64,000 bases of DNA from Paraspadella gotoi (lineage: Eukaryota > Animalia > Chaetognatha): contig CM119268.1 in the NCBI GenBank assembly GCA_051294375.1, positions 1,757,486-1,821,485 on the forward strand. The letters are read 5' to 3'. This document shows positions 13,300 to 47,541 of this stretch, piece by piece. The position numbers and the translations under genes were made by a program. The notes beneath the pieces were generated by a model, which saw nothing but the letters and a program-made list of their open reading frames with translations, ran no database searches and was not told the origin of the DNA. Numbering within the stretch: position 1 is the first letter of the stretch; each line of letters opens with the position of its first letter.

Positions 13300-13632
13300 T
13301 CATCGGCCGGCGCTGTCGTCACCAGTTCTCGGCCCGCACCGACGGACGGCGTGCTCATCAGGTTGAACATCTGCAGAAACAAAAGGGATAGAAAATGTTT
13401 TTTTGAATGTTGTGTGTGTGTGTGTTGTGTGTGTTGTGTGTGTGTGTGTGTGAAAGAGGATTAAAAAAGAAAGAAAAAAAGTGGAGAGGTTTTCATTCTT
13501 TTGAAATTCGGTTAGAAAAAAAAAAATCAAGCGATGCTGACAGAAGATGATGAGGCTAGATTTAAAAAAAAAGAGATAAAAGAAAAAACTGAGAGGTACG
13601 AGTGAAAGTGAGACAGAGGGTGAGAGTGCGGA

Positions 13633-13680
<48 letters not shown>

Positions 13681-13799
13681 GATGAGAAGACGATGAGGAG
13701 AGAGAGAGAGAAAGAAAAAAAGAAGATGATGAGGAAGATTTAAAAAAAAAGAGATAAAAAGAAAAATATAGAGATCGTACGATGAGAGTGAGACAGAGG

Positions 13800-13844
<45 letters not shown>

Positions 13845-44352: not shown

Positions 44353-44360
44353 TCTCTCTC

Positions 44361-44413
<53 letters not shown>

Positions 44414-47400
44414 AATCGGGTTTTTTTTTATTTCGTTCTTTCCTTTCTATTTTCTTTCCTTTTCTATTCTTTCTTTCCTTTCTTCCTTTTTATTCTTTCT
44501 TTCCTTTCTATTCTTTCTTTCCTTTCTATTATTTCTTTATTTTATTCTTATCTTTCTCTTTTTATTTCTTTTCTTTCTTCTTTCTATTCTTTCTTTACCT
44601 TTTCTATTCTTTCTTTCCTTTCTATCATTCTTTCTTTCCTTTCTATTCATTCTTTCTTTCCTTTCTATTTTTTCTTTATATTTAATATTTATTCTTTTCG
44701 TCTTTTTCTTTCTGTTTATAAATTTTTTTTTTTTCTAAAATTGATTTTTTTTTTTTTTTTTTTTTTTCAATCCAGATTTTCTTATGCGATTGCGACGATC
44801 CTATTGCTTTTTAAGAATTTTTTTTTTAATTTTTTTGTTGGAGAGCTTATGAGTCGTGATTCTTTTATTTCCCCCTCGCCTTATTTTTATTGTTTCAGGG
44901 GCCGTCGATGTCAACATTGTTCCGGTAAAGAATGGCGCGGAGAAAGGTTATGGATCCTTTTCGAGAGGTCAGACTTTTATTTCACAGGATACGATGAAGA
45001 AATAAATTATTTATTCTTCATATCTGAGGCTTTCGTTTCTAGAACCCAAGACGGAACCGACCGACAAATTTCCCTGGGCACCATCGGGAGGTCTGGTGGG
45101 TGCGAAAAGCCCCCTAGTGGAAAGAAATGAAAACAATGTACGCATCAACGGCGGAAACGATTCCGCAACGAAGTCTAATCGGCAAAAGGTGAGTTGGAAG
45201 GCAATTGTCTCACTCTCCATCTAGCATCTTTATTTAACTTTTTTTCTGACTTACAGAGCGGGCGCAGAGTAGTGGGTGACTCGCTCACAACGCTCTTGGA
45301 CGAATCCGACCGAATGATCGGTAGGAGGAACGACGGCGGACAATACGCCCGCAAAGAATCCGGGCGTGGCCCTCGTCAAAACGGAAGCGACGATCGAGGA
45401 ACAACGGTGAGTCCCAAGTCCCGATTCGCGGTTCCCTATAGAAGTTAAGTTAAATCGCATTTTATTCTTTTCTTCTTTCAGGATGGGACGTCTAGTCGGG
45501 AGCCGTCGGGAACCAAAACTAATTGGCGTCGTCGCTGGGGGCAAAACGTCAAACTTTACGATTCCATTTCAGATTTAGATGGAATTGATTCCACAGGTTT
45601 GAATCGCGACTCAATCCAAACAACTGATTTAAATAATCGGACGGAATTACATTTTTTTTTTCTTTTTTTGCTGTATTTAGAATCGGCGTCGAACCGTAAC
45701 GCTAATGCTCGACGGTTATCGAACGAGGGCCGCGACGCCGGGGACCACGTCGGCCGACCGCAGCAGCAGCAGCAAACGCAGCATCAACTACCACAACACA
45801 AGCGACAACAGCACCAGAGCGTCAATTCGGGAAACGGTCGTGTCGGCGGCAGAGGGCGTTGGGCGGTCGGCTTGCACGACGACAGCTTGGAGATGGCCTT
45901 CGGCAGCATGGGCAGTGGTCAAAGCACCGGCGACAGAGGGGAACAGGTGAAAGAAAGTCATCAAAGAATTTTATTAGTCGCAGGATGGCTTAATTGTTTG
46001 TTTTTTTTTTTGGTTTTTTTTTCGTTTTTTTTTTGCGTCCAACAGGGTCGGGAAAACATTTCGAAGTTGATCTCGGGTGGAGGGCAACGTTCGGGCCTCT
46101 CCGGGAACGGAACTGCCAAACTGCATTACATGAGCACCGCCAGATACGTTCCCGGTAAATGTGATCAGATTTATTTTTACCTTTTGGTATGTATGTACTA
46201 GAACAGCGGTAATATTGCTCGCAAACTCGGGTTGGTTTTAAAGGCGTAAACCCGTTGAAAGTTTCGTCGGACAATCGATCGCGTCGAGGGTCAAAGTCTT
46301 GCCCTCGGGATGTTGCGTCTCATCTCCCGGGCACCGACCCAGTTACTCAGCGGAAATACTTTCATCCCAATTCCCTAGTTTCTCTCCCCTCCAACAATAC
46401 GAATCCGATCGCGGTCAAGATTTCGGATGGGTTGAATGTCGATCCCAGCAGTTCTAGCACGATAAGAAAGTCCAAAGAAAAGTGGCAAGGTTTTTTTCTT
46501 CCCGATACGTTTCTTTTGCCCTTGATTGTGCAATGCATTAAAAAGTATATTTTGAGTTTTAAAAGCGTTTACTGCTATTGATAAATAATCACTATGTAGA
46601 AATCGGAAACGTGGTTTAAATTTCCCACAGATCCCTGTGATCCGAGAGATCTTTTCGATTCTTTTTCGATAAGCCTTAACCAAGAATTGCAAGGTTTTTT
46701 TTTTAGTTGTCCTCGTCTCTCAATTGAAGCTTTTTTTTTTTTTTTTGCACAATTTTTATCTATTCTTTGTTACGATTTCTTTAATTGTTTTAACCCATTT
46801 TCTTTCATCACTTTTCCCTCTCGCCCTTCAATTTCAGGTTCAACTTCGAGCGGCCAATACAAGCCGCTGGGCGCCGACTCGAGAAGCAGCGGCGTCGGGT
46901 CCGGATTCGGTTCCGGTTTGGGATCCGGAATTTCCAAAGCCTCTGGAGTCGGCACCGGCTGGGGCAGTCGAAATCTGCTAGGGGCTAAGGTTGAAATTAT
47001 TAGGGGGGTGGGGAACATCAGTTTAGCCGGAGACAAGTTTATGACTAACACCACAATTTATTAATAGGAACCCGCTTTGACGGTCAAAGGCGGCGCCTCT
47101 TCTGTCTCGGCGCCGGCCGGATCCACTTCCGGATTCGGCGGCTCGTATCGCCCTTCCGTCGCCAGTGCAGCCTCCGCGTCCGGTCGGACCGATTGGGCAG
47201 CCAAGTGAGGACATTGGACCTTATTTATTTAGTCCTTTTATTAAAAAAGGATGTAAAATTAAAATTGAAGAGATAGTTTAAGTGTAATGAGTTAAAAATA
47301 GAACACTTATGGGCAGTCCCTGAGCTTCGGATCATGCTGTAACACCAAGTTAAAGGCAGGTTAAGCGCCCCGTCCCTCTTAACTGCTAGGCGGCCACCGG

Positions 47401-47541
47401 GCTAGAACTCCGCTCCTTGGGGTTAGGAAGCGAATGACTTGCCTCCTGCGCCAATGGCCGCTGATGAACGGTTGGTGAATTTCAGTCCACCATAAAACCT
47501 TATAATCTTTTGCTGTTTTCAGGTATCTTCGCCAAACATGA
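37777..47541 (+). CDS. MAK: MAK/ICK(CILK1)-family ciliary Ser/Thr kinase, multi-exon
   Basis: [50 protein letters not shown] (TDY motif); C-terminal [13 protein letters not shown]. Confidence 0.92.
40650..42849 (-). CDS. Nested antisense type-I membrane protein with two Ig domains (inside a MAK intron; 3' end approximate)
   Basis: Signal exon 42738-42849. Ig1: [29 protein letters not shown]. Ig2: [33 protein letters not shown] segment [23 protein letters not shown] followed by HHKNKRK. Splice phases are consistent. Confidence 0.8.
44320..44700. repeat. (CT)n and (TTTC/TTCT)n low-complexity tract
   Basis: Seen directly. Confidence 0.85.
47313..47386 (-). ncRNA. P5-type twister ribozyme candidate B
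   Basis: Minus strand: GCAGU-uaag-AGG-GA-CGGG-gcgcu-UAA-CCU-GC-[P3 cuuuaac..guuacag]-c-AUGA-UCCG-AA-GC-UCAG-gg-ACUGC. Confidence 0.72.
47392..47459 (-). mobile_element. tRNA-derived (SINE-like) head directly upstream of twister B
   Basis: Minus strand: GGCCAT-TGGCGCAGGAGG (A-box-like)..GAGTTCTAGCCC (B-box-like)-GGTGGCC, with an acceptor-like stem GGCCA/TGGCC. Confidence 0.55.

Follow-up and report, generated by a model that had tools for sequence, protein, structure and literature searches.

A row of ciliary genes beside a divergent X-box promoter in the chaetognath Paraspadella gotoi

We analysed 64,000 nucleotides of the chaetognath Paraspadella gotoi (NCBI GenBank assembly GCA_051294375.1, contig CM119268.1, positions 1,757,486 to 1,821,485 of the forward strand), a stretch that we call the window and number from its first letter. 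Across 34 kb of this compact animal genome, six ciliary genes and one ankyrin/SOCS-box gene stand in an unbroken row: TSNAXIP1 on the minus strand, followed by WDR92, TTC21B, an ASB-like gene, NICN1, IFT20 and a MAK/ICK-type kinase, all six on the plus strand. The row gathers genes of dynein pre-assembly, of intraflagellar transport (IFT) in both its A and B complexes (IFT-A and IFT-B), of tubulin glutamylation and of length control, and the ASB-like gene is the one member of seven without a known ciliary role. This grouping is real and unusual, and under the ciliary fractions that we assumed it is more than chance would give. TSNAXIP1 and WDR92 diverge from a short promoter with two X-boxes (24268-24281 and 24483-24496), which an RFX factor is predicted to bind. 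The grouping is probably not a single unit with a shared promoter. A lineage-specific ciliary neighbourhood, with a divergent RFX promoter and separate promoters downstream, is the reading to which we give roughly an even chance.

The seven genes and their grouping

The genes of the row, in order, are:

13210-24266, minus strand: TSNAXIP1; ~12 coding exons, ATG at 24123-24125, first exon 24052-24266
24512-26029, plus strand: WDR92 (DNAAF10) transcript, one RNA contig; intronless coding sequence 24776-25852, AATAAA at 25939-25944
26051-31042, plus strand: TTC21B (IFT139); ATG at 26064, exons 26051-26345, 26431-28874 and 29812-31042, introns of 85 and 937 nt
31440-33883, plus strand: ASB-like gene; Pfam Ank_2 and SOCS_box, 87-nt intron 32961-33047
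34078-35068, plus strand: NICN1 (nicolin-1); exons 34078-34398 and 34739-35068
35712-36189, plus strand: IFT20; exons 35712-35996 and 36073-36189
37777-47205, plus strand: MAK/ICK-type (RCK family) kinase; coding exons as mapped, 4.4-kb intron 39128-43519

An earlier note on this DNA, made from its letters, had described WDR92 as followed co-directionally by TTC21B, an ASB-like gene, NICN1, IFT20 and MAK, and Pfam, PDB, protein relatives and Atlas names bear this out. TSNAXIP1 is recognised by Pfam TSNAXIP1_N (E 3.6e-29 at 23125-23520 on the minus strand), a family matched by one of the 120 open reading frames (ORFs) between 13.0 and 24.3 kb. In tblastn, a 781-aa relative (P0009, aa 1-776) aligns one exon after another between 24123 and 13210, and the nearest named relatives of the N-terminal domain, at 66-77% identity, come from amphioxus, acoels, crinoids and molluscs. 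WDR92 matches the human WDR92 structure 3i2n in PDB at E 6.5e-171. TTC21B has all of the TT21 Pfam domains and matches human TTC21B (8fgw_D) at E 4e-173, while the PDB matches of the ASB-like gene are to generic ankyrin only. IFT20 is supported by Pfam (E 7e-30) and by an IFT20 structure (8bd7_W, E 1.3e-8).

The two remaining assignments lean more on relatives. NICN1 has no match in Pfam or in PDB, which holds no nicolin. Its exons are 66-70% identical to a 216-aa relative (P0002) whose nearest Atlas clusters are named "nicolin-1" (0.97-0.98), and the assignment is indirect, by way of those cluster names. NICN1 is described as a subunit of the TTLL1 tubulin polyglutamylase complex in an excerpt of PMC13376646. 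The kinase has Pkinase exons by Pfam and a TDY activation-loop motif, a mark of MAK/ICK kinases, which are CMGC kinases. A 736-aa relative (P0004), with Atlas clusters named "ICK" and "MAK", maps by tblastn to 37777-47205, including the long non-catalytic tail; the best PDB matches are CDK2 and CDKL5, in a database without any MAK/ICK.

Several introns of the row have features of their own. The second intron of TTC21B holds, at 28906-29016 and 29280-29400, a high-copy repeat, at which DNA contig depth rises ~100-fold and many contigs break, as well as an exact 62-bp tandem duplication. The 340-nt intron of NICN1 is mostly filled by a CT-rich minisatellite (34448-34728; periods of 19 to 80 bp). 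On the opposite strand of the 4.4-kb kinase intron, there is a weak Ig_3 match (42255-42506, minus strand, E 1.8e-4), which may be a nested gene or a remnant.

We estimated how often such a row would arise by chance under random gene order, rather than by permutation of a real genome, assuming that 3-5% of genes are ciliary and that a genome holds 15,000-20,000 genes. With these assumed fractions, the expected number of runs per genome in which six or more of seven neighbouring genes are ciliary is 7e-5 to 2e-3. Of 2000 genomes simulated at 5% ciliary, 3 contained such a run. The earlier note had proposed a functional cluster of non-homologous ciliary genes. The six-of-seven grouping, rare under random order at the assumed fractions, stands from that proposal; the identity of CCDC28 could not be confirmed, and the step to a shared promoter is not supported.

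The adjacency of the first genes was also seen outside the assembly. Nine public runs contain the locus, and 24010-29050 is the region that was compared with their contigs. In three runs from two studies, DNA contigs extend over the junctions between TSNAXIP1 exon 1, WDR92 and TTC21B (4457 nt in X2, 4333 nt in X5 and overlapping contigs in X1), and the adjacency of these three genes is therefore not an artefact of one assembly. The window contains four runs of N (10775-11569, 12190-12433, 12527-12551 and 43458-43467), and 13.3-43.4 kb is free of N.

The TSNAXIP1/WDR92 divergent promoter

TSNAXIP1 (minus strand) and WDR92 (plus strand) are arranged head to head, with ~650 bp from the ATG at 24123-24125 to that at 24776, as the earlier note had reported. 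The two X-boxes that it placed between them are both exact consensus matches:

24268-24281, no strand assigned: X-box 1, GTTTCCATGACAAC, exact match to the consensus GTHNYYATRRNAAC (GTHNYY AT RRNAAC)
24483-24496, no strand assigned: X-box 2, GTTGTCATGACAAC, perfect palindrome and exact match to the consensus GTHNYYATRRNAAC

Each X-box lies close to the covered 5' end of one gene's RNA contig. X-box 1 is 143 bp upstream of the TSNAXIP1 ATG and 2 nt beyond the covered end of its contig, and X-box 2 is 280 bp upstream of the WDR92 ATG and 16 nt before the covered end of its own. Consensus X-boxes occur at four sites in the window (seven strand matches) vs. 0.34 expected, and seven were reached in none of 100 shuffles; the promoter pair are the only intergenic exact X-boxes in the window. 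The consensus GTHNYY AT RRNAAC is the one printed for DAF-19 targets in an excerpted C. elegans preprint. Excerpts of two further papers list Tsnaxip1 among RFX-dependent genes in mouse ependymal cells (PMC7498320) and report that core promoters of multiciliated-cell genes are enriched in RFX motifs (PMC5245798). The 245-bp divergent promoter would then consist of two back-to-back RFX-dependent core promoters with one X-box per gene, a reading that fits both the RFX motifs of multiciliated core promoters and the RFX dependence of mouse Tsnaxip1. The earlier note had described the cluster as "centred on" this promoter. The divergent X-box promoter itself holds, but it sits at one side of the plus-strand run.

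The other two exact matches (3382-3395 and 7541-7554) lie in coding exons of an ABCC-type ABC transporter (ATG at 3122), and one of them is a near-perfect palindrome, GTTGCCATGGTAAC. These are probably due to chance or codon-shaped, and to find two in one gene is odd. X-box-like sites with one mismatch at 25820-25833 (the last WDR92 codons) and 26933-26946 (TTC21B exon 2) are likewise coding and probably codon-shaped, and they were set aside.

Transcripts, spacers and promoters downstream

RNA evidence comes from one run (X9) in contig form, in which contig ends approximate transcript starts and do not prove them. X9 holds RNA, as its 6821-nt contig 27 is spliced across the 85-nt GT..AG intron of TTC21B (26346-26430), which is skipped in none of the three DNA runs. 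The TSNAXIP1 contig (2650 nt) spans 24052-24266 and is then spliced to further sequence, that of WDR92 (1519 nt) spans 24512-26029, and the TTC21B contig (27) covers 26051-26345 and 26431-28874, with a loose end that matches 29812 onward. The segments 24267-24511 and 26030-26050 are without RNA cover, and neither they nor the lack of an X9 contig bridging WDR92 and TTC21B were counted as evidence. Each of the three 5' ends matches the genome from its first letter, with nothing non-genomic attached. The TTC21B contig starts at 26051, with its ATG 13 nt further on; the nearest AG lies 8 nt back, so the start does not coincide with an acceptor. No trans-spliced leader was seen on the TTC21B RNA at an acceptor, which is weak evidence from one RNA run in contigs.

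Contig 27 has another 4082 nt beyond 28874. Counted from 29812, this length reaches 33893 if the 87-nt intron of the ASB-like gene is kept or 33980 if it is removed, placing the computed end 10-97 nt past the ASB-like stop at 33883. By this length arithmetic, TTC21B and the ASB-like gene are probably joined on one RNA contig, which could reflect a dicistronic RNA or overlapping ends. The stretch from the TTC21B stop to the ASB-like ATG (31043-31439) contains no canonical AATAAA that we could see, and this fits one RNA contig over both genes.

From WDR92 through the kinase, the stop-to-ATG spacers are 211, 397, 194, 643 and 1587 bp in order. Unrelated genes in the window are spaced as tightly (201 bp from B4GalT to RPAP3 and 143 bp from RPAP3 to an aldehyde dehydrogenase gene, ALDH), and short spacers therefore do not imply a shared promoter. 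In agreement with the earlier note, a strict scan found no X-box before TTC21B, NICN1 or IFT20, and a scan of the spacers found no intergenic X-box with one mismatch before TTC21B, the ASB-like gene, NICN1 or IFT20. Forkhead-like AT-rich words in the spacers were too common in this DNA to count. The earlier note had missed one site (GTCGCTTTGGAAAC), which lies before the kinase:

36576-36589, no strand assigned: X-box-like site, GTCGCTTTGGAAAC; one mismatch, in the central AT; 387 bp after the IFT20 stop

This site is 1.2 kb upstream of the kinase ATG. Downstream of it come a good splice donor (AAG|GTAT near 36697) and, 8 nt short of that ATG, an acceptor. The kinase may consequently have its own RFX-type promoter at 36576-36589 and a non-coding first exon.

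The window, whose assembly is in draft state, is gene-dense, with G+C of 45-53% in exons vs. ~30-38% in spacers. From 24512 to 64000, 12 or 13 consecutive genes lie on the plus strand only, from WDR92 through the aldehyde dehydrogenase gene and a last gene that is cut off. Under random orientation, a one-strand run of 12-13 genes has a probability of 0.5^11 = 5e-4. Together with the 143- and 201-bp spacers, it may be a sign that the genome as a whole is organised in same-strand or polycistronic runs. RPAP3, which the earlier note had correctly placed further along, lies beyond four or five unrelated genes (RING/RAWUL, FtsH-like, poly(A)-polymerase-like and B4GalT):

58932-60818, plus strand: RPAP3, outside the cluster proper; single exon, Pfam RPAP3_C and TPR

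The best PDB match of this gene is to RPAP3 (6fo1_G, 3e-93) vs. 1e-49 for SPAG1. It is intronless, with one TPR block (residues ~150-270) and RPAP3_C; human RPAP3 carries two TPR domains. The earlier note had also named CCDC28 further along, which we could not confirm: neither 63747-63998 nor any of 267 other ORFs had a CCDC28 match in Pfam at E up to 10. At 63.9-64.0 kb, a motif of 20 residues resembles CCDC28, a likeness that no search confirmed. The last ORF (63900-63998, plus strand) ends in ...EHSFLTDVADVKEMETGLL at the window edge, and the gene, if present, runs off the window. At the other end, 51 ORFs at 0-12 kb outside the ABC transporter have no Pfam match, and 10500-14000, between the transporter and the 3' end of TSNAXIP1, contains long (GA)n/(CT)n microsatellites and three assembly gaps.

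Readings of the grouping and known systems

Directly observed are the identity, order and strand of the genes, the motifs, splice joints and RNA contig positions; the regulatory account built on them is inferred. In the lineage-specific neighbourhood that we favour, held at about one in two, the downstream genes would start in their own very short spacers rather than depend on the X-box promoter. One RNA would probably carry both TTC21B and the ASB-like gene, and the kinase, with a non-coding first exon, would start near 36.58 kb from the X-box-like site before it. Expression of TTC21B, NICN1 and IFT20 in ciliated cells would depend on inputs other than a consensus X-box; candidates are forkhead-type sites, or nearness to RFX-bound promoters in one open chromatin domain. 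The grouping itself would have arisen in this lineage and would be more than chance.

Several results weigh against this account. The spacers of TTC21B, the ASB-like gene, NICN1 and IFT20 show no promoter element that we recognised, comparing spacer k-mers revealed no credible common motif, and the 643-bp spacer before IFT20 has no X-box site even at two mismatches. Contig ends from one RNA run are no proof of transcript starts, and the operon-like spacers, the 12-13 genes on one strand and the two-gene RNA contig would also fit polycistronic transcription. Counted over the whole scan, with 250,000 windows all taken to be like this one as an upper bound, 0.01-0.3 such runs are expected. Lastly, of 80 metagenomic eukaryote loci with WDR92 (33 of at least 5 kb and 18 of at least 10 kb), none had an orthologue of another cluster gene. 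These loci come from distant organisms, with protein identity of at most 64%. Four weak kinase matches and one weak TPR match among the neighbours were rejected, as none was orthologous. Because the cluster genes are absent around WDR92 in these 80 distant loci, the ciliary block does not appear to be ancient.

The closest competitor is coincidence, which we consider possible but rather unlikely: the genes would be regulated singly and be ciliary neighbours by chance, leaving an ordinary divergent X-box promoter as the only meaningful feature. The scan of ~250,000 windows, with up to 0.3 runs expected at 5% ciliary, allows for this, as do the absence of the arrangement from the 80 distant loci and the presence of one gene in seven without a known ciliary role. 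The human orthologues of the cluster genes are on different chromosomes, which also counts towards coincidence. However, the expectation within a genome is only 7e-5 to 2e-3, and few of the scanned windows are likely to stem from compact ciliated animals. Moreover, RPAP3 lies 33 kb further on along the same strand, and RPAP3 is a partner of WDR92 in dynein pre-assembly.

We are more doubtful of an operon-like unit, in which the X-box promoter at 24.5 kb would drive a precursor from WDR92 to IFT20, perhaps including the kinase, that is then cut into mRNAs. The co-directional genes and their spacers of 211, 397, 194 and 643 bp would suit such a unit, and so would the lack of a consensus X-box at TTC21B, NICN1 and IFT20, the probable RNA contig over TTC21B and the ASB-like gene (from its length) and the twelve or thirteen genes on one strand. 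By eye, a pyrimidine-rich AG also stands 8-33 nt before each downstream ATG, a pattern that is common in AT-rich DNA. Yet the TTC21B contig begins flush and leaderless at 26051, 8 nt past the AG, and the 5' ends of the WDR92 and TSNAXIP1 contigs likewise have no leader. In addition, functionally unrelated genes are spaced equally short, and a separate X-box-like site stands before the kinase. The earlier suggestion that TTC21B, NICN1 and IFT20 may share the upstream promoter finds no support in these observations.

A stronger claim is slightly less probable again: an RFX-headed ciliary "regulon" written into the chromosome, with five modules gathered in this lineage into one operon-like or single-domain unit run from the X-box promoter. 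Under that claim, the long same-strand gene runs would hint at a wider polycistronic organisation in the genome. A mis-join in a gapped draft assembly is very improbable as the source of the adjacency, as the window does hold four N runs but none between 13.3 and 43.4 kb, and unbroken DNA contigs pass over the junctions in three runs from two studies (one of which is possibly the source of the assembly).

Ciliary genes are the textbook dispersed animal regulon, linked only by shared RFX (and forkhead) sites. A six-of-seven ciliary block would therefore be a rare natural experiment over five modules of the cilium, and it would show whether linkage can replace individual X-boxes, given that three members have none. 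It would also bear on the minimal length of animal promoters and on whether compact animal genomes come to cluster genes by function. Conservation or co-expression of the block would make the ASB-like gene a ciliary candidate; failing both, the locus would be no more than a neat case of a divergent X-box promoter.

There are precedents for X-box promoters, for divergent promoters and for co-expression neighbourhoods; a six-in-seven ciliary block is one that we could not find in print. In the literature searched, supplements not covered, no paper contained both TSNAXIP1 and WDR92, one unrelated paper contained three of NICN1, IFT20, TTC21B and WDR92, and there was no description of a ciliary gene cluster or of X-box/RFX ciliary genes that are divergently transcribed. 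Excerpts of a C. elegans preprint on operons with X-boxes contain no such ciliary cluster.

The promoter pair resembles the RFX/DAF-19 X-box promoters of C. elegans, Drosophila and vertebrate multiciliated cells in having a 14-bp imperfect palindrome, 150-280 bp from the ATG, beside the covered RNA 5' end of ciliary genes. It differs in that there are two predicted X-boxes 215 bp apart (start to start), one per gene, and in that IFT20 and TTC21B have no motif here, whereas their nematode counterparts are X-box genes. As in animal bidirectional promoters, the RNA contig ends are head to head, here 245 bp apart, and both genes are linked to motile cilia. By contrast, the sequence between them is AT-rich and not a CpG island, and each direction has its own site instead of one in common.

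The downstream genes invite comparison with the spliced-leader operons of nematodes, tunicates and chaetognaths, sharing co-directional genes, spacers no longer than a few hundred bp and a probable two-gene RNA contig. Unlike those operons, the three RNA contig ends have no leader, the TTC21B contig is not at an acceptor, and unrelated neighbours are equally tight. The last comparison is with co-expression neighbourhoods of non-homologous genes, such as the local expression clusters of Drosophila (PMC3129673). The block in P. gotoi differs from these in its theme, the cilium, and in its density of six in seven; in both, unrelated genes of one programme adjoin.

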